DNA from: Pontiellaceae bacterium
Lineage (GTDB): Bacteria; Verrucomicrobiota; Kiritimatiellia; Kiritimatiellales; Pontiellaceae
DNA length: 64,000 nt
Assembly (NCBI GenBank): GCA_016937945.1
Contig: JAFGVP010000102.1
Location: forward strand, 20,227 to 84,226
Direction: 5' to 3'
The position numbers and the translations under genes are program-made. Numbering within the stretch: the stretch's first letter is position 1; every line of letters begins with the position of its first letter. Under the pieces are notes generated by a model. That model was not told the DNA's origin, did no database searches, and saw nothing but the letters and a program-made list of their open reading frames with translations. This document shows, piece by piece, positions 27,437 to 42,123 of the stretch.

Positions 27437-27739
27437 TCAGGCAGCCGACACAAACTTGTCGCCCAGCCGGCAGTGATGCCCGAACCGGCAGATGGTCTGG
27501 CAATATTGTTCGCGCCATTGACGCGCCAGACCGAAGTAGCCGTGTTCCATGAAATCGCGTTCGGCTTCCCGCCAGGAAACTTCCGATCCGCGACGCTCGG
27601 ACATATACCATTTGTTTTCATCGACGGCCTTGCAGTATTGCGTAATCTGCCACTCCTGAAGCGATCTGAATCCACTGCAGGTGATGCCCCGGTCGCTTTG
27701 ACAGTCCATTCTTCCTTCGTTGTAGTTTTCGTCTCTCAT
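27437..27739 (-). CDS. hypothetical small Cys/His-rich protein
   Basis: 100-aa ORF with ATG start and a GGAG-like Shine-Dalgarno. Several Cys/His ('CSGF', 'CQTICRFGHHC'). Convergent with korB. Confidence 0.35.
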   Translation of the reverse strand: MRDENYNEGRMDCQSDRGITCSGFRSLQEWQITQYCKAVDENKWYMSERRGSEVSWREAERDFMEHGYFGLARQWREQYCQTICRFGHHCRLGDKFVSAA

Positions 27740-28231
27740 GACTCCGTGACTCCATCAAATATTCTCTGACATATTCTATAGCATAGCCCATGCCGTTCCG
27801 GATGGGAACCGAACGAACTCGCAGCGAAACCATCCCGAATAACCTGAGTCACGGGGGGAACGGAAACACATTCCCATTCACCCTCCCGCCCATGTCGGTT
27901 CAGTTTATCCGGATCAAGGCGGAATAACCGGAAAACAGATTCCATTTTCCCGCACGGGAAAACCCATTTTTTGATGCCTGCACGACATGTTTCGCACGGA
28001 AACACAGAATCGACGAAGGTCTTACAAAAGCCCCATGAGGTTATAATTGAGATAATGGGACCAACACATATCATGTCTTCAAATCAAACACTTGAACTTG
28101 GTTTCAATTATTTGATTAGAAGTGGACAAATATATTGCGTGCATATATATGTGTATAAAATTTTCGGTCAGGGTTTGGTACCCACCGAGTGTCATCCCGG
28201 AACGAACCGGGAGCAAACGAAAGGAAAAGCT

Positions 28232-28912
28232 ATGAACCTGTTCAAACGCATGATGCGTATCACGAATGCCCGTATCGAAGCGGTTCTCTCCTCTGTTGAG
28301 GATCCTGAAACCATGTTTCCCCAGCTCGTTCGCGAAATGGAGGAACAGGTCGGCAAAGCCACCGAAGCAGAAGCTCAGGCCCTGACGGCGCTCAAGGTTG
28401 CAGAACGGAATCTGGAAGGCGCCAAAAACAACGTTGCAAAAATGCAGTCCGGCGCCGAACTTGCTGTAAAGAATAACGACGAAGCCATGGCCCGCGAAGC
28501 CATTGCTGCACAGCTTGACCACGAAAAGACACTCCAGCTGAAAGCGGATGCCTGCGACAAGGCCCGCGAAAGCTATGAACGCGCTCGCGATACCCGCCTT
28601 CAGGTCCAGGAAAAGCTGGACGAAATCCGCTCCAAGCAGGACGAGATCCTCACACGGGCCCGGATTGCAAAGAGCCAGAAGAAGATTGAGCAGACCGTCA
28701 GCTCCCCCCTGAACTCATCCGACAGCATTCTTGATGCGATCGACCGGCTTGAAGGCAAGGTTGAACAGGCGGAAGCAGAACTGGAAGTCCGGCGCGAAGT
28801 GGCCGGATCCGGCAAGCCGGCCCGCGACCTTGAAAAACGGCTCGAAAAGCTCGAAAGCGAGCAGGAAGTCGAACAGCGTCTGGCCGCCTTGAAAAATAAG
28901 CTGGCAGACTAG
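28232..28912 (+). CDS. pspA: PspA/IM30/Vipp1-family protein (ESCRT-III-like), paralog 1
   Basis: 'MNLFKRMMRITNARIEAVLSSVEDPETMFPQLVREMEEQV' closely parallels the PspA N-terminus. Coiled-coil throughout. Strong AAGGAAAAG Shine-Dalgarno. Confidence 0.85.
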   Translation: MNLFKRMMRITNARIEAVLSSVEDPETMFPQLVREMEEQVGKATEAEAQALTALKVAERNLEGAKNNVAKMQSGAELAVKNNDEAMAREAIAAQLDHEKTLQLKADACDKARESYERARDTRLQVQEKLDEIRSKQDEILTRARIAKSQKKIEQTVSSPLNSSDSILDAIDRLEGKVEQAEAELEVRREVAGSGKPARDLEKRLEKLESEQEVEQRLAALKNKLAD

Positions 28913-29004
28913 CTCCACCATGGCTCCGCAGAGCACGGAATCCGGCTTTTTTAAGTCTCCGTGCCCGCGTGTGCCCGCTTACTGAATCGAACAGGGAGCG
29001 AGTC

Positions 29005-29658
29005 ATGAATATCAGAGATCGTCTCAAAAACGTCTTCAAGGAAACCTTCCTTGATCTGTTTCACGATGAAGAACCAACACCAGACAATATGGACTCGGCA
29101 CTGGAACAGGCCCGCAGCAGTGCGGAAAAAGCCATGGACGCCCTTGCGGCGTTTACTGTATCGCATCTTCATCTTGCGGAGCAGCAGCATGCGGTCGAAG
29201 AACAGTTCAGCGCCTTGAACGCAGAGCTCGAAAGCGCCCTTGCAGAAAATGACGACAGCAGAGCCCGCAACCTGATCCGGAAGAAAAAACCGATTCAGAA
29301 CCAGTTGAATCAGCTCAATGAGCGCATGGCCGAAAGCAATGCGAGACATCAGGAGCTGAAGGCCCGGGTTGACGCCGTAAAGGGTCAGGTGCTGGATATC
29401 GAGCGGCGGAAAATGGAGCTTCAGCTTCGCGACCGGACCGCCGATGCAATGGATGAACTGGCACGGACAGAGGATGCAATCGGACAGGCCCATAACTATT
29501 CGGAGAGCATCGATGCCGAACAGACGGTCCTGCAGAAGGAAGCGGCTAATCAGGTAACAGCGGATCAGCGTAACACGATCGATGCGAAACTGAATCGGCT
29601 GATTGAAGACGACGAGGTTGAGCAGGAACTGGCCCGTCTCAAAAAAGAACGAAACTGA
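29005..29658 (+). CDS. PspA/IM30-like coiled-coil protein, paralog 2 (divergent)
   Basis: 'MNIRDRLKNVFKETFLDLFHDEEP...' PspA-like helix-0/helix-1, then coiled-coil. Directly follows paralog 1. Confidence 0.7.
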   Translation: MNIRDRLKNVFKETFLDLFHDEEPTPDNMDSALEQARSSAEKAMDALAAFTVSHLHLAEQQHAVEEQFSALNAELESALAENDDSRARNLIRKKKPIQNQLNQLNERMAESNARHQELKARVDAVKGQVLDIERRKMELQLRDRTADAMDELARTEDAIGQAHNYSESIDAEQTVLQKEAANQVTADQRNTIDAKLNRLIEDDEVEQELARLKKERN

Positions 29659-30296
29659 TGGGACTGCTTTCCAGACTTAAGGATATCAGCACCGGAAAAC
29701 TCCTCGCATTCCTTGATGAGGCGGAGCGACCGGAGCAGATTATTCCCCAGCTGCTCGACGAGCTGAGCGACCAACAGCAGGCTTTGCGTAATGCCGAGGC
29801 CAAATCGTTGTCGGCGGTCAGGAACGCACAGCGCCGGCTGGAGGAAACCATGGGGCGGTCGCTTCGCCTTGAGCGGGGAGCCGAGCTGGCCATCCGCAAA
29901 GGCGAGGATGACACCGCCCGGGAAGCGCTCAGGGAACAGCTCAAGATCGAGAACATTATTCCCCGGCAGCGCGAGCAGGTGGAGCAGGCACAGCAGATTC
30001 TGGACGATGTCCGGGAAAGAAGCCGGGCGATGGATGAGCAGATTGCCGCCGTTAAAGAAAAACGGAACACACTAAAATCGGCGCCGGACACTCCTCCCCA
30101 TTCGTCCGAACCGCTGTTGCGAAAAGTGGCGATGATGGAGGAGCGGATCATCGAAGAGGAAGCCGGACTGGAAGCACGGCGGGAAGTATACCAGCGCCGG
30201 CGCTCGCTCGATGAACGCCTGCTTGAGCTGGAACGCAACGAAGAAATAGAGAATCGCCTTAATAATATCCGAAAGGAACAAAACCATGATGGCTGA
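29658..30296 (+). CDS. PspA/IM30-like protein, paralog 3
   Basis: 'MGLLSRLKDISTGKLLAFLDEAERPEQIIPQLLDEL' PspA-type N-terminus. Start overlaps the stop of paralog 2 (TGATG). Confidence 0.75.
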   Translation: MGLLSRLKDISTGKLLAFLDEAERPEQIIPQLLDELSDQQQALRNAEAKSLSAVRNAQRRLEETMGRSLRLERGAELAIRKGEDDTAREALREQLKIENIIPRQREQVEQAQQILDDVRERSRAMDEQIAAVKEKRNTLKSAPDTPPHSSEPLLRKVAMMEERIIEEEAGLEARREVYQRRRSLDERLLELERNEEIENRLNNIRKEQNHDG

Positions 30297-30945
30297 ACTG
30301 CAGGAACTGATCCGGATCATGCTCGCAGGAATCAACCTGCCGATCACGCTTCTGTTTGCTGTTATGATCCTCTACTGGCTCAGCGTTATCTTCGGTGCGC
30401 TGGATATCGATATTCTTCAGTTTGACTTTGATGTCGATATTGAAGGCGGAGCTGACCTTGATGCTGACGCGGATGCAGATGTTCAGGGAGGCGGACCATT
30501 CCAAAGCATGCTGCTCTATTTCAATGTCGGTTCGGTGCCGGTCACGGTCTGGCTGAGTTTCCTGATTTTCACCTGCTGGTTGCTCTCCGTTCTTGAAACC
30601 TACTATTTTAATCCGGGGCTCCATTTCCTCATCGGCCTGATCTTTGTCATCCCGAACCTGATCGTAGGAATGTATGTGGCGAAGATGGCTACCGCACCGC
30701 TCAAGAAAGTGTTTGACGCCATGGCCCCGAAAAATATCACGCGCAAATCGCTCATTGGCCAGCGTGCCACGGTTTCTTCATCGACCGTCAGCAGCAGCTT
30801 CGGACAGATTGTCGTCAAAACCGATGGCGCACCGATCACTCTGAACGCCCGAAGTGCCCACGAAATCAGCAAAGGCGAAATGGTCGTAATCACACACGAA
30901 AAAGAACCGGGCGTCTTCACGGTCGAACCGTTTTCAGCAAACTAA
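30286..30945 (+). CDS. NfeD/YqiJ-like membrane protein (flotillin-associated, C-terminal OB-fold)
   Basis: 219 aa. Multiple TM helices, acidic loop 'DIEGGADLDADADADVQGGG', C-terminal beta-rich segment 'GQRATVSS...GQIVVKTDGAPITLNA...GEMVVIT' typical of the NfeD OB-fold. Precedes flotillin as in yqiJK/nfeD-floT pairs. Confidence 0.7.
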   Translation: MMAELQELIRIMLAGINLPITLLFAVMILYWLSVIFGALDIDILQFDFDVDIEGGADLDADADADVQGGGPFQSMLLYFNVGSVPVTVWLSFLIFTCWLLSVLETYYFNPGLHFLIGLIFVIPNLIVGMYVAKMATAPLKKVFDAMAPKNITRKSLIGQRATVSSSTVSSSFGQIVVKTDGAPITLNARSAHEISKGEMVVITHEKEPGVFTVEPFSAN

Positions 30946-30979
30946 ACAGGGAATCTAAAAAACAACCAGGAGAAAAATC

Positions 30980-33022
30980 ATGGGGGAACTACTAGGACTC
31001 ATCGTAATAGGCGTAGCTGCACTGCTCGTGCTCGGGCTGATCGGCGTCATTGTCAAATGCTACCGCAAGGTGGAACAGGGTACTGCGATTATCCGTACCG
31101 GGGTGGGCGGAACACGCGTTTCCTTTGAAGGCATTCTGGTCTTCCCGATTCTTCACCGCATGGAGCTGATGGAAATCTCCGTTAAGCGCATTGAGATTGA
31201 TCGTGCCGGATCGGACGGACTGATCTGTAAAGACAACCTGCGGGCCGACCTGAAGGTTGCCTTCTTCGTCCGGGTAAACAAAACGCCCGAAGATGTATTG
31301 AACGTGGCACAGTGCCTCGGATGCAAACGCGCCTCCGATCCGGTTGCCCTGGTGGACTTCTTTGACGCCAAGTTTTCCGAAGCCCTGAAGACCGTCGGTA
31401 AAAAGTTTGAGTTCGTCGAACTCTACTCAAATCGTGATACCTTCAAGGAAGAGATCATCAAGGTGATCGGAACCGATCTAAACGGATACGTGCTCGACGA
31501 CGCCGCCATCGACTATCTGGAACAGACCAAGCTCTCGCTCCTGAACCCCGACAACATTCTCGATGCCGAGGGGATCAAGAAGATTACCGAACTCACCGCC
31601 AAGCAGGCGATCCTCGCCAACGACATTGCGCGCGACAAGGAAAAGATCATCAAGAAGCAGGATGTGGAAGCACGTGAAGCCATTCTGCAGCTGGAAAAAC
31701 AGCAGGAAGAAGCCGAACAGAAACAGAAGCGCGAGATTGCTGAAATCACCGCTCGCGAAGAGGCCGAAGCCGCCAAAGTCAGGGAAGAAGAACGCAAGAA
31801 AGCCGAAAAAGCGAGGATCCAGACCGAAGAGGAAATTGCCGTCGCCAACGAAAACAAAGATCGTCAGGTTATCGTGGCCGCCAAGAACAAGGAGCGGACC
31901 GATCTGGTGGAAAGCGAGCGCATCATCAAGGATCGCGATCTTGAAGCCACCGAACGCGAACGGATTGTCACCCTCGCCCAGATCGAGAAGGAAAAGGCCG
32001 TCGAAGTCGAACGGAAGAATATTCAGGAAGTCATCCGCGAGCGGGTCATGGTTGAACGTAATGTGGTCGAGGAAGAAGAGCACATCAAGGATACCCGCGA
32101 ATTTGCCGGTGCCGACCGCGCCAAGCAGGTGGCCCTGACCAAGGCGGCGGAACAGGCCGAACAGAACCTGCTCATCGAAACCAAGGCCGCGGAAGCCCGC
32201 AAGGAAGCCATGCGCCACGAAGCCGAGCAGATGATCATCAAGGCCGACGCCGAACGCACGGCATCCGAAAAGGCGGCCGACGCCCGTAAGATCATGGCCG
32301 ACGCCCAGGCCGAAGAAGAAGCCGTCATCGGTATCGGTGAAGCCCGCGCGCTCGACGCCAAGGCCACGGCCACCGAGAAGTTCGGCATCGCCGAAGCCAA
32401 CGTGATCCAGAAGAAGGCGGAAGCCGAAGCCACCGCCATACAGAAACAGGGTGAAGCCGAAGCGATCGTGATTGGAAGCAAAGCCAGCGCCGAAGCCAAG
32501 GGCATTGACGAAAAGGCTGCCGCCATGAAGAAGTTCGATGCCGTCGGCAAGGAACACGAAGAGTTCAAGCTTAAGCTCAACAAGGATCTGGAAATCGAAC
32601 TCGCACATATCAACGTCCAGAAGGATATCGCCCGCGAACAGGCAGCGGTTATTGCCGAGGCTCTCAAGTCGGCCCGCATCGATATTGTCGGGGGCGACAG
32701 CACCTTCTTCGACAAGATTGTGGATTCCGTTACCAAAGGAAAATCCTTCGACCGCATGATCGATAACAGCACCGCGCTGACCGACATCAAGGAAACACTC
32801 TTCACCGGCGACTCCACAAACTTCACTGAACAGCTGAAGCGCTTTACTTCGCAGTTCGGCATGGATTCCGAAGACCTCAAGAACCTCACGGTTGCTGCGG
32901 CACTAGGGCAGATGATGTCCAGAGCGGACGAAGGAACCAAGGGATTCCTTCAGAGCATCATGGACACGGCAAAGAAGACCGGCATTGCCGATCAGGCCGC
33001 ATCCACCTTCCTGAACAAGTAA
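30980..33022 (+). CDS. flotillin-family SPFH-domain protein (YqiK/FloT-like)
   Basis: 680 aa. N-terminal TM, SPFH/band-7 domain, then a long E/A/K-rich coiled-coil with flotillin-type repeats ('AEAEATAIQKQGEAEAIVIG'). Confidence 0.85.
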   Translation: MGELLGLIVIGVAALLVLGLIGVIVKCYRKVEQGTAIIRTGVGGTRVSFEGILVFPILHRMELMEISVKRIEIDRAGSDGLICKDNLRADLKVAFFVRVNKTPEDVLNVAQCLGCKRASDPVALVDFFDAKFSEALKTVGKKFEFVELYSNRDTFKEEIIKVIGTDLNGYVLDDAAIDYLEQTKLSLLNPDNILDAEGIKKITELTAKQAILANDIARDKEKIIKKQDVEAREAILQLEKQQEEAEQKQKREIAEITAREEAEAAKVREEERKKAEKARIQTEEEIAVANENKDRQVIVAAKNKERTDLVESERIIKDRDLEATERERIVTLAQIEKEKAVEVERKNIQEVIRERVMVERNVVEEEEHIKDTREFAGADRAKQVALTKAAEQAEQNLLIETKAAEARKEAMRHEAEQMIIKADAERTASEKAADARKIMADAQAEEEAVIGIGEARALDAKATATEKFGIAEANVIQKKAEAEATAIQKQGEAEAIVIGSKASAEAKGIDEKAAAMKKFDAVGKEHEEFKLKLNKDLEIELAHINVQKDIAREQAAVIAEALKSARIDIVGGDSTFFDKIVDSVTKGKSFDRMIDNSTALTDIKETLFTGDSTNFTEQLKRFTSQFGMDSEDLKNLTVAAALGQMMSRADEGTKGFLQSIMDTAKKTGIADQAASTFLNK

Positions 33023-36100: not shown

Positions 36101-38200
36101 GGCTGGGCTCTGCATCCGGATAAGGACGAACTGTCCGATAAACTTGCGGGCTACGGCCGCGTCCGGAATGTATTCCGCAATACCGGTCGTCACGCAGCCT
36201 ATACCCGCGAACTGCAGCGGATTCTGCAGGACTTTTCCGAAAGCAATGAGCTTTTCCCTGAACACGATGCCGTTTTTGCGGCGGAATATCTTTCGGATGT
36301 GCTGACCCATGATGGAAAACATCCGATCAGTCGGGAAGCCATAGCGCTCTTCAACGGGTTTCAGCAGCGGCTGAAACGGCCGGGAGCCCAGCGCCTTTTT
36401 GATGAAGCGATGGCGCCGGTTGAAAAGCGCCCGCTGGCCCGTTTTGATCTGCTCAGGGACTGGCTGGCGGCATACATTGAAGATGAAGCATTGCCGGAAC
36501 TGTGCGATGTGATTGCTGAAACCGCGGCTCTGATGCTGACGGACAAGATGGACCCGCTCAACTCCGGCGATCTGGACACCCGCTGTGAAATCAGCGAACT
36601 GGCCGGAAGTCATGCGCGCATCACCAACGGCAAATACCTCTTTGATTATCACGACCTGCTGCGCCGGGTTCATCTGCATGAAACCGGACTTCTCCCCCAC
36701 TTCGCGGTTTTCCTCGAAAAGAAAAAGGCGCTGGTTGAACGTACGCGCGATGAAATGCGACTCGATGAATTTAAACCGCGCGTGCTGACCTCGTTTGTCC
36801 GGAACCAGCTGATCGACAAGCTTTACCTGCCGCTGATCGGTGACAATCTCGCCAAGCAGATGGGCACCGTCGGGGCAGACACACGCACCGACCGCATGGG
36901 CATGCTGCTGCTGATTTCTCCGCCGGGTTACGGGAAGACGACGCTGATGGAATATATCGCCAACCGCCTCGGGATTATCTTCATGAAGATCAACGGCCCG
37001 GCGATCGGCCATCAGGTTACTTCCATCGATCCGGCCGAAGCTCCGAATGCCGCGGCGCGGCAGGAGCTGAACAAGCTCAATCTGGCACTGGAGATGGGCG
37101 ACAACGTGATGATCTATCTCGACGACATCCAGCACTGTAATCCGGAACTGCTGCAGAAATTTATTTCGCTCTGCGATGCCCAGCGAAAGATTGAAGGCGT
37201 CTACAAGGGCCGGCCGAAAACCTATGACCTGCGAGGCAAGGCTGTCTGCGTGGTGATGGCGGGCAACCCCTACACGGAAAGCGGTGAAATGTTCAAGGTG
37301 CCGGACATGCTGGCCAACCGGGCAGACACCTATAACCTGGGTGATATGATCGGCGATTCTGCCGACGCCTTCAAACTCTCCTATATCGAGAACGCCATGA
37401 CCTCCAATCCCGTTCTGGATAAGCTGGCATCGCGTTCCCGTTCGGATATTCATGCGATGATCAGGCTCGCGGAAAATGATTCCCGCGAAGGGATCGAGTT
37501 TGAGCGCGACTATTCAGCCGACGAGATTGCCGAATTCACTTCCGTACTTCGAAAGCTGCTCCGCATCCGCGATGTCGTGCTGACCGTGAATCAGGAATAT
37601 ATTCGCTCCGCCGCGCAATCCGACGACTACCGCACGGAGCCGCCGTTTAAACTGCAGGGATCCTATCGGAATATGAACCGGTTGGCGGAAAAGGTGCAGC
37701 CGATCATGAATGATGCGGAGATCGAGGCAATCCTGATGGATCATTATACCGGCGAAGCCCAGACATTGACCACCGGTGCCGAGTCCAACCTGCTCAAATT
37801 CAAGGAACTGTTCAGCAAACAAGATGAAACCGAAGCCGCCCGCTGGACGGAGATTAAGAAAACCTTCAACCGCAACCAGCTGTTCAGTGCCGCCGGTGAC
37901 GATAAACTGGCCCCGATTATTCTTCAGCTCTCCCGCTTCAATGAACATCTTGAAGAACTGAAAAGCACCATTGCTCAGGCTGCAGAATCCCGACCAGGGC
38001 AATCGTCTGCCGAGATCAATCTGGGATTATCGACTATTGAGGCGCTTAAACCGGCATCGACCGACTTCGGTCCGCTCCAGCAGACACTGCTGGAAATTGC
38101 GGAAAAACTGCAGGAAAGCGGAATGCATCCACACAGGAGAAGTGAACTTCCGGTGCATATGCAGAAACCCTGGCCGAAGGATTCGGACGACAGCAAATAG
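33116..38200 (+). CDS. very large (~1694 aa) protein with C-terminal AAA_5 (dynein/MoxR/McrB-type) ATPase module; N-terminal ~1250 aa of unknown function with coiled-coils
   Basis: Walker A 'LLLISPPGYGKTTLMEYIA'. Walker B/sensor region 'VMIYLDDIQHCNPELLQKF...AVCVVMAGNPY' matches the AAA_5 'DEINRA' pattern. ATG at 33116 with an AAAAAGGG Shine-Dalgarno. Confidence 0.8.
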   Translation: MAEETAGKEQESQLESGAYEVIRGRLNTHSQDLFSRTEQLDKHRREVFGSIETALLATERITTENNCVPRDMVEVGNQFLFGYNVHIGLRSEMQLGDVFSAYTFNEDGGFRSAPLDLLGSSEFETHFRELYKYYKNTRFSAFRDVGTCLYMIFRISDDPADIKAFKWQRNDDGSITYIDNRSDHEVRFPPQHEFEWTRASRDMQRNGEHPHVSIQDRIFVETIGGDLTIKIEDNTDTGEGIFAEPVDNPDQTLDDAEIWYTCIESLILLKILPYQEKNYRYIVYSEKLNIAQRIDTIADSCVLLPRNRGIIFANGYFLQNGEVKTFENSLTDMRFLRRIAATNGEDHLYIFFNRRNGVYVLLAYNVIQETVATPITCHGYSLFENGRLIFFKAGNEPQKSHAIQVWQTPFTGADVVLSKNTDDYLYKIGNSDIVRCMAACNAIINLSRREDTYANLYVDLVREAQDVIDTYFWIEKQEAYDLRAPLLQIRDAAKAAIDEFEKVRRLRQQASTALKEMRRRVKDATSASASSRYEKLDPYVKALANLRALRGEIISLRELRYMDLEQVEVMETSVAEQTDKTARTCVEFLLKPESLTPYSDEVAKVAESIETVEKVADAKKIEGAVTERAGELEMLTDTVSNLKIDDATQRTDIIDRISQIFSSLNRVRSTLRNRLKELAVREGSTEFASQLKLLSQAVTNYLDVCDSPEKCDDYLGKVMIQIEELEGRFSDFDEFIEQLTERREAIYQTFETRKQQLMEERNRRADTLLRSAERILKSIAPRLNSMQTVEEINGYFASDLMVDKVRNIIEQLTEMDDSVKAGDIQTRLKTLREDAVRQLKDQQELFVGGENVIRFGTHHFAVNTQPLELTLVRREENMFMHLTGTDFFEAVTDEAFLETRAVWEYELPSETKDLYRAEFLAVQLFRKALAEGLAEYAEDELLKYVQEHMATRYTEGYIKGVSDIDAAKLLHALLSIHQRAGLLQYSPSIRALAILGWALHPDKDELSDKLAGYGRVRNVFRNTGRHAAYTRELQRILQDFSESNELFPEHDAVFAAEYLSDVLTHDGKHPISREAIALFNGFQQRLKRPGAQRLFDEAMAPVEKRPLARFDLLRDWLAAYIEDEALPELCDVIAETAALMLTDKMDPLNSGDLDTRCEISELAGSHARITNGKYLFDYHDLLRRVHLHETGLLPHFAVFLEKKKALVERTRDEMRLDEFKPRVLTSFVRNQLIDKLYLPLIGDNLAKQMGTVGADTRTDRMGMLLLISPPGYGKTTLMEYIANRLGIIFMKINGPAIGHQVTSIDPAEAPNAAARQELNKLNLALEMGDNVMIYLDDIQHCNPELLQKFISLCDAQRKIEGVYKGRPKTYDLRGKAVCVVMAGNPYTESGEMFKVPDMLANRADTYNLGDMIGDSADAFKLSYIENAMTSNPVLDKLASRSRSDIHAMIRLAENDSREGIEFERDYSADEIAEFTSVLRKLLRIRDVVLTVNQEYIRSAAQSDDYRTEPPFKLQGSYRNMNRLAEKVQPIMNDAEIEAILMDHYTGEAQTLTTGAESNLLKFKELFSKQDETEAARWTEIKKTFNRNQLFSAAGDDKLAPIILQLSRFNEHLEELKSTIAQAAESRPGQSSAEINLGLSTIEALKPASTDFGPLQQTLLEIAEKLQESGMHPHRRSELPVHMQKPWPKDSDDSK

Positions 38201-38352: not shown

Positions 38353-41300
38353 ATGAATCGTTTTCTATCTGCCGGACTCATCCTCCTGACACTGCTTCTT
38401 CCTGTCCTGCCGTCGCAGGCTGCTGATTTTCTATCAGCGGAGGTGATTGCGAAAAAGGCAACTGCGGCCTCTGTTGATAAATATCCCGATTCCGATGCGG
38501 TCCTGCTTGATGACTACATTCAGGTGACCTACAACGCCGACGGAACCTCCGAAATGTGGGACGACACCGCCGTTAAGATCCTGACAGAAAAGGGCAAACG
38601 CAATTATCGCACGCTATCGCTCTCCTTCAACACTTCATACGGCACCAACTACTTTACACTGGTGGAAATCATTAAACCCGACGGATCGGTGATTCCCGTG
38701 GATATTACAGCCAACAGCAAGGTGATGGCGGATCCCAGCCAGATGAGCGCGAATATATACAACCCCAACAGCAAGGTGCTCAGTCTGTCGGTCCCCGGCC
38801 TGGAAGTGGGCGACACCCTGCACTACATCTCCTACGATCTCACAACAAAAACCGTCGTTCCGGATACATGGAGCGACTATCAGGTCTTTGAAGGAGAAAC
38901 TCCGATCGAGCAGATGACCTATCAGGTGGTTGCCCCGAGCGCGCGTCCGCTGCAGAAGATCGCGCTCAAGGGAGAGATTCCCGGCAAAGTTTCCTTCAAC
39001 CAGACCGTCAGCGAAGAAGACGGATATATTATCTACACGTGGCAGGTGCGGGATGTCCCGCGTATGTTCGACGAACCCGACATGCCGAAACGCTACACCG
39101 TTGTGCAGCGCCTGCTGGTCAGCACCATCGAATCATGGGAAGATCTCTCACGCTGGTACTGGGAACTGTGCAAACCGCGGCTTGATGCCACGACGCCGGA
39201 AATGGAAGCTAAAGCCCGCGAACTGGTAGCGGGATGCGAAACGAAGGCCGAAAAAATTCAAGCGGTTTTCCAGTTTGTTTCGCAGGATATCCGCTACATG
39301 GGTATCACCCCGGAAGAAGAGGCGCCCGGTTATGAGCCGCACGATGTATGCATCACCTTCGAAAACCGTTACGGGGTCTGCCGCGACAAAGCAGCCCTGC
39401 TGGCGGCCATGCTCCGGATTGTCGACATCGAGGCGTTCCCGGTCATCATCATGGCCGGCCCCAAGAAGGATGAAGAAGTTCCACAGCCCTTCTTCAACCA
39501 TGCGGTAACCGCCGCTCTTGGTGATGACGGTGAATACATCCTGATGGATTCCACCGACGAAAACACGAAGGACATTTTTCCGGCCTACCTCCAGAACATG
39601 AGCTATCTGGTTGCCCGCCCCGAAGGAGAGACCCTGCTCACCTCTCCGGTTATTCCGGCAGAAAACAATCTCCTGCGGATTCAATCCACCGGCACACTGA
39701 ATGCCACCGGCACATTGAACATGGAGAGCGTACTGAACTTTGAAGGCGTGAACGATACGGTTTATCGCGGCTACTTTTCAAAGATCAAGCCAGAGGAACG
39801 CCGGCGCTTCTTTGAGGGCCATCTGAAACGGACGATGCCCACCGCGATATTGAACTCGCTTGAAATCCTGCCCGAAGAGCTGCGCGACACCAGTAGCCCA
39901 CTGGTCGTAAAGATGACCTTTTCCGCAGACAACCTCCTGATTGAAGGCGAAGAAAACACCATGTTCCGACCACCGCGTCTCGGAATGTCGCTTGGCTACG
40001 CAAACTTTCTCATCGGACAGACCGGCCTCGAAGAGCGTAAATATCCGCTCTACACCCAGATCACCGCCGGTATTCGTGAAACCCAGAAGCTGAAGCTTCC
40101 CGACGATCTGGGCACCATCAATGTGCCGGATTTCATGCTGATCGACACCGAAACCATTACATGGAATGCCCATGCTTCTCAGCACGACGGCGCACTCTAC
40201 TCCACCAACATCTTCATGCTCAATACCGTGGAGTTCAGCCCGGAACAGTACAGCACCCTCAAGCAGCAATTGAAGGATATTGAATACAATCTGCGCAAGA
40301 GCATTGTGGCCGATGCCCCGCCGCAGTCGGAAGACGAAGCGGATATTCGGATTCTCGACCAAGAGACCGAGATTGTGCTTTCCGGCGTCGACCGATGGAC
40401 GGAAACCCGCCGGACCAAACTGAAGGTACTGACCTATGCCGGCCAGAAGGAATATTCCGAAATCAAGCTGTTCCATAATCCGGCGTGGCAGGAAATCGGA
40501 ATAACCCACGCAACCGTGACGCTCGCCGACGGAACCGTCAAAGAGATCAGCGACGATGAAATCAACCTGATGGACGCATCCTGGGTGGCCGGTGCGCCCC
40601 GCTATCCCTCCGGACGGATTCTGGTGGGCAACCTGCCCGGCGTGGAAATCGGAAGTACCATCGAGTATGAAGTGGTCTCCCGCGTTAATGGTAAACCCTT
40701 CTTTTCCATGATCGAAACCTTTACCGGCCATGAACCGGTGGATCACAGTAGGCTGACAATCACCGTTCCAGAGAACCTTCCGCTGCAGATTCTCAACACC
40801 GGTGTGGATGAAACCATCGAAAGCAGCGAAGATTCCATTACCTACACATGGAGTGTCTCGAATAAGCCAGCCGTCAAGTTTGAGGAATCCCTGCCGGACT
40901 GGTGGACGTTCAATCCATCGGTATTCGTTTCATGCGGCGACTGGGAAATCTACAGCAAGCAGCTTCTCGAACGTCTTCGGCAGGCCTCCCGCGAACAACC
41001 GGAAGCCATCCGCATGGCACGGAAAATAACAGGAGGAATCGGAAGCCATCGCGAGCGGGTGATTGCCATCCGCAACTGGGTAGCCGAAAACATTCGCCCG
41101 GCCGGTCCTTCCCTGCCCGACCTGCCCTTCGACGCCATTTCGCCGGCCGACCGCACGCTGGCCGACCGCTACGGCAACAACACAGATCGCATGGTCGTAC
41201 TCTACACCCTACTTAAGGCTGCCGGCTTCAAACCGGAATTCATTCTGTCCGGCGGCACGCCGCACATTGCGGAGGCTGCAAAACCGATGCTCGAAGTGCC

Positions 41301-42123
41301 GATCCGAACAGCATTCAGGTCCGTACTGCTCCGCATGGACCTCGATGGAGAAACCCTCTATATTGACGGCTCATCGCAGTATGCCGAGCTGGGAGCCAGC
41401 GCATTTGATCATGAACCCATGCTGCTTCTCGCCAACGGAACCATCGGCACCGTCCGGGTAGGACCTGGCAAGGATGACCGCTCTCACCTGCTGTACGAAA
41501 TGTCCATAACGCCGGACGGCGAGATGACGCTTTCTGAGGACATTGCGGTTCAGGGAGTGCGCTTTGAATCCTTCCATAGCACCTATGCGGAAATGACCCC
41601 GGAAAACCGCCGGCGCCACTATCTCGAAATCGTTTCCGGGGTTTCCCAGTCCGCCAAAGCCATGACAGAGCTGGTAACAGATTATGACAAATATCCGGGC
41701 AGGCTGGCCTTCACGGTTAAAGCACCTCGCTTTGCGGTGAAAGACGGCGACTATCTGTATTTCACCCTCCCGGAAGATTCTCTCAGTAACCTGCTTGTGT
41801 ACCGATCCAACGAACGAACCCTCCCGCTGGCATGGAATGCACATATCGACACATTGACTGAGTTTATCATTTACCTTCCAAAGGGATACGAGCCGGCGAT
41901 TCTTCCTGAAAACTTTTCATGGCAGGCGCCGCGTGGCGCCGGACTCATTGATATGGCCGTGGAATACAGTCCTGTCGATCACTCCATCCGTATGGTCCAG
42001 ATCGCCGATCTTCGGCCGGCACTGATCCCGGCGGATCAGTTTCCGGACATTATCAACGCCGGCCGCAAACTGGCCCATCCGAAAATGCGCACCATCCTGC
42101 TGAAAAAATCGGCCGCCAAATAA
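38353..42123 (+). CDS. secreted DUF3857/transglutaminase-like large protein (~1256 aa)
   Basis: Signal peptide 'LILLTLLLPVLPSQAAD'. Transglutaminase core 'YGVCRDKAALLAAMLRIVDIEAFPV'. A second DUF3857/3858-like half follows. Shine-Dalgarno GGAG precedes the ATG at 38353. Confidence 0.75.
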   Translation: MNRFLSAGLILLTLLLPVLPSQAADFLSAEVIAKKATAASVDKYPDSDAVLLDDYIQVTYNADGTSEMWDDTAVKILTEKGKRNYRTLSLSFNTSYGTNYFTLVEIIKPDGSVIPVDITANSKVMADPSQMSANIYNPNSKVLSLSVPGLEVGDTLHYISYDLTTKTVVPDTWSDYQVFEGETPIEQMTYQVVAPSARPLQKIALKGEIPGKVSFNQTVSEEDGYIIYTWQVRDVPRMFDEPDMPKRYTVVQRLLVSTIESWEDLSRWYWELCKPRLDATTPEMEAKARELVAGCETKAEKIQAVFQFVSQDIRYMGITPEEEAPGYEPHDVCITFENRYGVCRDKAALLAAMLRIVDIEAFPVIIMAGPKKDEEVPQPFFNHAVTAALGDDGEYILMDSTDENTKDIFPAYLQNMSYLVARPEGETLLTSPVIPAENNLLRIQSTGTLNATGTLNMESVLNFEGVNDTVYRGYFSKIKPEERRRFFEGHLKRTMPTAILNSLEILPEELRDTSSPLVVKMTFSADNLLIEGEENTMFRPPRLGMSLGYANFLIGQTGLEERKYPLYTQITAGIRETQKLKLPDDLGTINVPDFMLIDTETITWNAHASQHDGALYSTNIFMLNTVEFSPEQYSTLKQQLKDIEYNLRKSIVADAPPQSEDEADIRILDQETEIVLSGVDRWTETRRTKLKVLTYAGQKEYSEIKLFHNPAWQEIGITHATVTLADGTVKEISDDEINLMDASWVAGAPRYPSGRILVGNLPGVEIGSTIEYEVVSRVNGKPFFSMIETFTGHEPVDHSRLTITVPENLPLQILNTGVDETIESSEDSITYTWSVSNKPAVKFEESLPDWWTFNPSVFVSCGDWEIYSKQLLERLRQASREQPEAIRMARKITGGIGSHRERVIAIRNWVAENIRPAGPSLPDLPFDAISPADRTLADRYGNNTDRMVVLYTLLKAAGFKPEFILSGGTPHIAEAAKPMLEVPIRTAFRSVLLRMDLDGETLYIDGSSQYAELGASAFDHEPMLLLANGTIGTVRVGPGKDDRSHLLYEMSITPDGEMTLSEDIAVQGVRFESFHSTYAEMTPENRRRHYLEIVSGVSQSAKAMTELVTDYDKYPGRLAFTVKAPRFAVKDGDYLYFTLPEDSLSNLLVYRSNERTLPLAWNAHIDTLTEFIIYLPKGYEPAILPENFSWQAPRGAGLIDMAVEYSPVDHSIRMVQIADLRPALIPADQFPDIINAGRKLAHPKMRTILLKKSAAK

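Follow-up and report, generated by a model that had tools for sequence, protein, structure and literature searches.

A PspA triplet upstream of a YqiJ-flotillin-ATPase core in Pontiellaceae: a lineage-specific variant of a described operon class

An operon that combines CesT/Tir-PspA with YqiJ/YuaF, Band-7/flotillin and beta-propeller-AAA+ proteins was described by Ravi et al. 2024 (PMC11237479), who gave Dokdonia donghaensis DSW-1 (ANH61663.1) as the example, proposed a role in membrane dynamics and noted a wider spread of abbreviated operons that lack PspA. In B. subtilis, experiments showed that recruitment of PspA to the membrane requires YdjI, the SPFH protein of the pspA-ydjGHI (samGHI) operon (Scholz et al. 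2021, PMC8581546), and PspA gene neighbourhoods in Acidobacteriota have been reported to include Band 7/FloT and NfeD proteins (Popp et al. 2022, PMC9239133). An ancient link of ESCRT-III to SPFH proteins has been noted (Makarova et al. 2024), and a 2025 review (PMC7619361) states that bacteria have no Vps4-like ATPase and that composite filaments are possible only in lineages with PspA duplications, and puts the lineages able to form heteropolymers at below 10%. Here we analyzed a stretch of 64,000 nucleotides (nt) from a Pontiellaceae bacterium (contig JAFGVP010000102.1, assembly GCA_016937945.1; the whole stretch is called the window below), which carries three pspA paralogs followed by genes for a YqiJ-like membrane protein, a flotillin and a giant AAA+ ATPase (Table 1). 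This predicted operon is a lineage-specific variant of the class described in 2024, and its triplet form recurs in relatives from the Kiritimatiellota and Verrucomicrobiota.

Comparison with the Ravi-type operon revealed three orthologous core genes in the same order, flotillins that are approximately 55-60% identical, and PspA encoded directly upstream on the same strand. The window differs in that it carries three PspA paralogs, anciently diverged, instead of one, and no CesT/Tir gene; no CesT/Tir-like open reading frame (ORF) was found in the 64-kb window using phmmer or in the public gene calls. Its PspA proteins are distant from those of the Bacteroidota operons (40-60 bits or less), and the host phylum, Kiritimatiellota, is not mentioned by Ravi et al. 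The B. subtilis pspA-ydjGHI operon also places PspA together with an SPFH protein and membrane anchors; however, YdjI is soluble and not a transmembrane flotillin, YdjG and YdjH, the latter a TPM-domain protein, serve as anchors in place of YqiJ/NfeD, and there is one PspA and no AAA+ ATPase. An NfeD2-type protein is encoded immediately upstream of an SPFH2 flotillin in E. coli yqiJ-yqiK and B. subtilis yuaF-floT (PMC2636767), as in the window, but the E. coli locus comprises two genes only, without PspA or ATPase, and the window flotillin is longer than its E. coli counterpart (680 versus 553 amino acids [aa]). The Acidobacteriota neighbourhoods, which were compared by description only, belong to another phylum and are described without a giant ATPase or a PspA triplet. 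The form seen in the Planctomycetes-Verrucomicrobia-Chlamydiae (PVC) group, with a conserved PspA triplet and no CesT/Tir gene, was not found described in the cited PspA/flotillin papers, and a literature search for Pontiella with flotillin returned nothing.

Table 1. Coordinates of the gene block and of associated features in the window.
Feature	Position	Strand	Description
pspA1	28232-28912	+	226 aa; PspA/IM30, ESCRT-III-like; best conserved of the three paralogs
pspA2	29005-29658	+	217 aa; highly diverged PspA paralog
pspA3	29658-30296	+	212 aa; third PspA paralog
yqiJ-like	30286-30945	+	219 aa; predicted YqiJ/NfeD2-family membrane protein
flotillin	30980-33022	+	680 aa; predicted YqiK/FloT type (SPFH2)
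giant ATPase	33074 (GTG) or 33116 (ATG) to 38200	+	1708 or 1694 aa; DUF3686, DUF7902, coiled-coil regions, MoxR-class AAA+ module
DUF3857-transglutaminase-DUF3857 protein	38353-42123	+	1256 aa; secreted; about 150 nt after the ATPase gene
Promoter-like TTACAA-N14-TATAAT	28022..28047	+	about 185 nt upstream of pspA1
Conserved 5' leader	28164..28231	+	68 nt directly before the pspA1 start codon; two small hairpins predicted
pspA1-pspA2 intercistronic hairpin	28913..29004	+	minimum free energy -39.8 kcal/mol, z -3.0
Terminator-like hairpin and T-run	27945-27962		closes the upstream oxidoreductase unit

Analysis of the ORF list and of the junction sequences revealed seven consecutive genes on the plus strand, from pspA1 to the DUF3857/transglutaminase gene. 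The gap between pspA1 and pspA2 is 92 nt and contains a hairpin, pspA2 and pspA3 share 1 nt (TGATG), and pspA3 overlaps the yqiJ-like gene by 11 nt (8 nt with the second ATG, at 30289, as the start). A spacer of 34 nt with an AGGAG site separates the yqiJ-like gene from flotillin, and 51-93 nt separate flotillin from the ATPase gene, depending on the start of the latter. An AAGGA Shine-Dalgarno sequence lies 9 nt upstream of the yqiJ-like start, and a Shine-Dalgarno-like site is present at every start of the block. The coordinates were reproduced by public gene calls on an identical contig from a metagenome-assembled genome (MAG), JAFGBO010000049.1 (GCA_016933135.1). An earlier note on this DNA had outlined a block at 30286-33022, with the 11-nt overlap and 35 bp between the yqiJ-like and flotillin genes; the genes and the overlap agree with the ORF list and junction sequence, the spacer measures 34 nt, and the block extends further, as the note missed the ATPase gene beyond 33022.

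To place the block in a wider context, species-representative genomes were scanned with a flotillin alignment. The 81 loci analyzed comprised the best 80 of at least 582 confirmed matches together with the locus of Pontiella desulfatans (L001). A YqiJ homolog was encoded directly upstream of flotillin in 80 of these 81 loci, and a DUF3686 ATPase directly downstream in 75, most of the others being truncated contigs. On these counts no partner accompanies the YqiJ-flotillin pair more constantly than the ATPase, and we describe the three genes as a predicted core with PspA as the add-on. PspA was found directly upstream on the same strand in 36 loci (33 Bacteroidota and 3 Kiritimatiellota or Verrucomicrobiota), with a median PspA-to-YqiJ gap of approximately 35 nt. 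The 33 Bacteroidota loci represent the Ravi-type form, in which a CesT_Tir_1 protein of 131-133 aa (E = 7e-54) precedes PspA. Core-only loci occurred in Planctomycetota (most), Firmicutes and many Verrucomicrobiota. Upstream genes in the PspA-less loci were unrelated housekeeping genes, for example those for an RpoD-like sigma factor, an FabI-like reductase and a beta-galactosidase, and no conserved extra partner was found when one was sought in these loci; an HKD/PLD-like gene in one of them (L050) fits the description of Ravi et al.

PspA joined the core in at least three arrangements, namely CesT/Tir-PspA in Bacteroidota, the multi-PspA array in the PVC group, and a weak PspA homolog with a second AAA gene located downstream. 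The last was observed in a deltaproteobacterial MAG (L084, 17325-19789), where a divergent PspA-like gene, which at 29.5 bits falls short of the PF04012 cut-off of 33.9, and a gene for a 577-aa classical AAA ATPase follow the core; PspA would here have been joined to the core in a third, independent manner. The co-occurrence of pspA, nfeD and flotillin in other genomes, which the earlier note had named as a check, is seen in the 36 loci with PspA directly upstream. Its statement that PspA and NfeD-flotillin systems are normally separate loci was overstated in view of these 36 loci, of Ravi et al., of Popp et al. and of B. subtilis pspA-ydjGHI, and the novelty it implied for the combination is lost to PMC11237479, where the class already appears. 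Its interpretation is supported in part: the tight, co-directional and conserved block fits a single operon with a shared membrane function, and the presentation of this as a new combination has to be given up.

Among close relatives, P. desulfatans, L082 and L091 have the three-PspA order, as does L083, which is more distant (69% flotillin identity). Other relatives carried two PspA copies (L092 and L003), one (L002) or none (L093). The 11-nt coding overlap between pspA3 and yqiJ was also present in L082, and the PspA-yqiJ gaps in L091 and L092 were 1-4 nt. The genes flanking the module differ throughout the relatives. As the same order recurs with unrelated flanks in P. desulfatans and four metagenomic relatives, the arrangement is not a chance adjacency. 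Two candidate features of these loci were rejected. A 183-aa gene next to a Phage_CP76-like helix-turn-helix (HTH) gene in L093 was considered as a hidden PspA, but had no Pfam match and a BLAST match (E = 7e-4) over 65 aa only. A 407-aa ORF between yqiJ and flotillin in P. desulfatans (L001, 8743-9966) was considered as a part of the module, but neither the window nor other relatives have it; the ORF gave a weak integrase-core (rve) match and is probably an insertion element that splits the operon. Taken together, we consider it reasonably probable that pspA1-pspA2-pspA3-yqiJ-flotillin-ATPase forms one six-gene transcription unit (approximately 28.05-38.2 kb, plus strand) that serves as a module for maintenance and remodelling of the inner membrane, and it is co-transcription of the six genes that we infer from their packing and synteny.

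We then considered the proteins individually. All three PspA paralogs scored above the PF04012 cut-off of 33.9 bits (PspA1, 101.5; PspA2, 47.5; PspA3, 71.5), and N-terminal helices of the M-x-L-[FL]-x-R type are visible in the PspA sequences. PspA1 aligned collinearly, from end to end, with PspA/Vipp1 chains of solved structure (E = 8e-22), and PspA3 matched E. coli PspA (4whe, E = 3e-11); the match of PspA2 to Vipp1 structures was weak yet collinear (E = 0.004). Scores against TIGR02977, the equivalog model of proteobacterial PspA, were 94, 17 and 78 bits for PspA1 to PspA3, below the cut-off of 243, and the three proteins are therefore not equivalogs of proteobacterial PspA; no PspB, PspC or PspF was identified among the neighbouring genes. 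PspA1 and PspA3 share 31% identity, and PspA2 is approximately 22% identical to either. Each paralog is much closer to its positional counterpart elsewhere than to its own neighbours, with orthologs of PspA1 in L001, L082, L083 and L003 (170-340 bits), of PspA2 in L001 and L082 (approximately 250 bits) and of PspA3 in L001 and L082 (270-290 bits). Judged by these scores, positional orthology is clear for PspA1, probable for PspA3 and limited to the Pontiellaceae for PspA2, and the divergence of the three paralogs is an ancient one.

The 219-aa YqiJ-like protein fell below the Pfam cut-offs (YqiJ_N, 17.4 bits versus a cut-off of 23; NfeD, E = 0.014), and a pairwise BLAST comparison with E. coli YqiJ was not significant. 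Comparison of a 21-sequence profile of the protein with E. coli YqiJ using hhalign gave a probability of 98.6% (E = 5.4e-16, 199 columns), and the homology takes in the N-terminal part with its several transmembrane segments. The AlphaFold2 model (predicted local distance difference test score, 83) comprised three transmembrane helices, an acidic D-x-D loop modelled as disordered and, at the C-terminus, a beta-barrel with strands at residues 160-215 that correspond to the NfeD OB-fold barrel. The five best Foldseek neighbours in the PDB were all NfeD proteins, namely YbbJ (8z5g, from the QmcA-YbbJ complex), YuaF (2k14), and 2k5h, 3wwv and 2exd, the names given for these three being MTH693, 1510-C and PH0471. 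A 100% identical protein at NCBI is annotated 'DUF1449 family protein [Pontiellaceae bacterium]'. On profile and predicted fold the protein belongs to the YqiJ/NfeD2 family, and the NfeD/YqiJ-like identity given in the earlier note stands despite the sub-threshold Pfam scores. The acidic D-x-D repeat loop lies between the first and second transmembrane helices (30400-30480; residues 39-68); it varies in length but is always present in homologs, with D47, D49 and D57 nearly invariant, and could bind cations or act as a sensor.

The whole 680-aa flotillin gave no Pfam match, and a sequence search of the PDB with it gave none. When the first 220 residues were used, Band_7 was detected on residues 30-170 (36.4 bits versus a cut-off of 23.6, E = 6.9e-9). 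In the protein, an N-terminal transmembrane helix (hydrophobic residues 5-25) is followed by the SPFH domain, a long coiled coil rich in E, A and K, and a C-terminal domain that is conserved. Its alignment with E. coli YqiK spans 444 aa at 31% identity (E = 8e-49) and extends into the coiled coil. The C-terminal 206 aa, where the Flot domain PF15975 was sought, had no Pfam match, and this region is strongly conserved among homologs. Annotations of the homologs read YqiK or flotillin, and identity across phyla is 55-65%. The Band_7 match and the homology to YqiK identify the protein as a predicted YqiK-type flotillin, in agreement with the earlier note, and together with the yqiJ-like gene it is assigned to the SPFH2-NfeD2 pairs, as Hinderhofer et al. 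2009 (PMC2636767) use the term.

The N-terminus of the ATPase matched DUF3686 (E = 1e-183), and DUF7902 and an AAA+ module were also present. Its Walker A (SPPGYGKTT), Walker B (DDIQH) and sensor-1 (MAGNPYTE) motifs were at least 90% conserved in 66 full-length homologs. A predicted structure covering the C-terminal 528 aa had MoxR-class remodelers as the best neighbours of the AAA module, with an AAA_5-type fold and motifs, and the protein is probably an active AAA+ remodeler of the MoxR/AAA_5 type. A Vps4 signature was not found: the protein has no MIT domain and no Vps4 C-terminal domain, and its AAA module is not Vps4-like. No VWA/MIDAS domain was detected in the ATPase or in the neighbouring genes. 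The DUF3686 region defines a modest family (962 clusters at 50% identity among 1.84 billion). A literature search for DUF3686 and PF12458 returned nothing, and no experimental work on the ATPase was found in the cited papers on PspA/flotillin operons. The AAA+ module (36614-38197, plus strand; approximately 450 aa) is 58-68% identical to many shorter proteins of approximately 500-900 aa, some with TPR or ankyrin N-termini and some without extra domains; among these, a full Pfam AAA_5 match was obtained for one, a stand-alone Saprospiraceae protein of 588 aa that lacks a conserved or informative gene context. The module resembles a highly conserved, mobile ATPase cassette that has been fused to varied adaptor domains.

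We also examined the non-coding DNA of the block. The TTACAA-N14-TATAAT sequence is conserved in P. desulfatans and L082 despite the diverged intergenic DNA that surrounds it, and is tentatively assigned as a promoter, with a 14-nt spacer that is short for sigma-70. The 5' leader of pspA1 is near-identical in the window, P. desulfatans and L082, and its motif occurs once in the window. It had no Rfam match, and its fold was not better than that of shuffled sequence (z -1.2); it may be a regulatory element that binds a protein or a small RNA. Within the block, the conserved TATAAT box and leader sit upstream of pspA1 only. The pspA1-pspA2 hairpin folded better than all shuffled sequences (0 of 200 folded as well), and a long inverted repeat of different sequence occupies the same position in P. 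desulfatans and L082. This is not a universal feature, as the gap at that position in L091 is 7 nt. As no T-run comes after it, the hairpin does not qualify as a canonical terminator; it may act in mRNA stability or in attenuation, and in either capacity could raise the level of PspA1. Terminator-like matches on the plus strand inside the block were no commoner than in shuffled sequence (24, with 19.9 ± 4.7 expected), and were weak and located within coding sequence.

If the six genes do form an inner-membrane module, the following model can be proposed, with physical interactions and an inducing signal that we infer. The three-PspA array would have been recruited in front of the YqiJ-flotillin-ATPase core in Pontiellaceae and some relatives. 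YqiJ would anchor the complex, its NfeD barrel binding oligomeric flotillin on the cytoplasmic face of the inner membrane, as suggested by the solved QmcA-YbbJ complex and other SPFH cages. The flotillin platform would then recruit the PspA proteins to the membrane, by analogy with YdjI in B. subtilis. The ancient divergence of the three paralogs and their retained gene order suggest that they may form a mixed or sequentially assembled polymer, which would seal or reshape the stressed membrane. Finally, strict synteny and intact catalytic motifs suggest an AAA+ ATPase that would assemble, remodel or recycle flotillin assemblies, PspA assemblies or both at the expense of ATP. A bolder version treats the operon as a bacterial counterpart of ESCRT-III/Vps4, in which the three PspA proteins, as specialised paralogs, build a composite polymer in sequence on the flotillin/NfeD platform and a dedicated giant ATPase of the MoxR class, not of the Vps4 type, drives its turnover. 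We regard this version as rather doubtful. Archaeal and eukaryotic ESCRT-III/Vps4 systems (for example, CdvB/B1/B2 with CdvC) also combine several specialised ESCRT-III paralogs with a dedicated AAA+ ATPase, and composite polymers are the rule there; the window ATPase, however, is of the MoxR/midasin class and has no MIT domain or Vps4 signature, and the likeness is an analogy at best.

Several observations weigh against the membrane module as proposed. In 45 of the 81 related loci no PspA adjoins the core; the core therefore works without a neighbouring PspA in most lineages, and its tie to PspA may be a matter of regulatory convenience rather than of a physical complex. PspA copy number ranges from 0 to 3 among close relatives, which argues against an obligatory three-subunit polymer. 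The ATPase is MoxR/midasin-like and not Vps4-like, with no MIT domain and no VWA partner, and PspA is at most a candidate substrate. At the level of transcription, the stable pspA1-pspA2 hairpin could attenuate read-through, and the gap of 51-93 nt before the ATPase gene could be the site of an internal promoter. The 45 loci without an adjacent PspA (including most Planctomycetota, Firmicutes and many Verrucomicrobiota) and the variable PspA number among near relatives also favour a different explanation, in which a PspA stress array and an autonomous YqiJ-flotillin-ATPase module are independent neighbouring units whose products do not interact; psp and yqiJK are likewise apart in E. coli. Independent units do not, however, account well for the 11-nt coding overlap in the window and L082 or the 1-4 nt gaps in L091 and L092, for PspA directly upstream in 36 of 81 loci at a median gap of approximately 35 nt, or for the joining of PspA to the core in three arrangements in three lineages, and there is an experimental precedent for an SPFH-PspA link (PMC8581546). 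We therefore consider this explanation unlikely.

The size and multidomain architecture of the ATPase also raise the possibility of anti-phage defence or abortive infection, with the giant NTPase sensing infection and flotillin, YqiJ and PspA acting as effectors or in self-protection. Weak matches to nSTAND3 (E = 0.0076) and PADLOC mad8 (E = 0.0023), the label 'MoxR-like ATPase/TA module component' given by JGI to some homologs of the AAA module, and Phage_CP76-like HTH genes beside the module in L002, L003 and L093 point in this direction. The nSTAND3 and mad8 matches are, however, confined to the P-loop; no significant PADLOC-DB 2.0 family was identified for the six proteins, which gave only weak coiled-coil or P-loop matches (E of 1.7e-4 or higher), and the domain scan detected no nuclease, protease or pore-forming effector domain. 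In addition, a flotillin that is 55-65% identical across phyla in housekeeping surroundings is unlike the fast-evolving content of defence islands, and a defence role appears highly improbable. That the ATPase is a DNA-repair enzyme with no functional tie to the membrane genes is hardly credible, as this would rely on the title that Pfam gives to DUF3686 ('ATPase involved in DNA repair'), for which no support was found, and on weak RuvB_N P-loop matches, against a gene position directly downstream of flotillin in 75 of 81 loci, RuvB similarity limited to approximately 45 P-loop residues, MoxR-class remodelers as best structural neighbours, no detected DNA-binding or nuclease domain, and no paper returned for DUF3686/PF12458.

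The surroundings of the module were also analyzed. The secreted DUF3857/transglutaminase protein encoded after the ATPase gene is conserved beside the module in no relative and probably lies outside it. Upstream of the pspA array, the window carries 2-oxoacid:ferredoxin oxidoreductase genes, and the long gap between these and pspA1 contains a 100-aa ORF (27437-27739, minus strand) that is also called in the public annotations of two contigs and has a weak DUF4032 match only. In P. desulfatans (L001, 3933-5178 and 198-3797) and L082 (4088-6897 and 17341-20175), genes for extracytoplasmic function (ECF)-type sigma factors and large Ser/Thr kinases flank the pspA array, with an FHA protein also encoded among the flanking genes in P. 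desulfatans; the products of these flanking genes may be lineage-specific regulators of the operon. A Phage_CP76-like HTH protein (162-177 aa) is encoded next to the module in three relatives (L002, 8281-8796; L003, 7430-7963; L093, 5683-6171), in two of the three co-directional and directly upstream of PspA and in the third divergent. It is a candidate regulator, and its gene was not found in the 64-kb window.

The operon class bears on two questions in PspA/Vipp1 biology, namely how the polymers reach membranes and how they are disassembled without Vps4, as it puts PspA beside a membrane scaffold (flotillin and NfeD) and a highly conserved AAA+ ATPase. Three diverged PspA paralogs are a precondition for composite ESCRT-III-like polymers. 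If the ESCRT-III/Vps4-like version of the model were true, it would represent an independent bacterial invention of ATP-driven ESCRT-III dynamics, since bacteria are said to lack a Vps4-like ATPase (PMC7619361). The value of the present locus is limited in that the class was predicted in 2024 and that culturable Bacteroidota or Pontiella desulfatans are easier to work with than a MAG. Within the class, the Pontiellaceae variant could offer a natural setting in which to test PspA dynamics that depend on ATP and involve several subunits.

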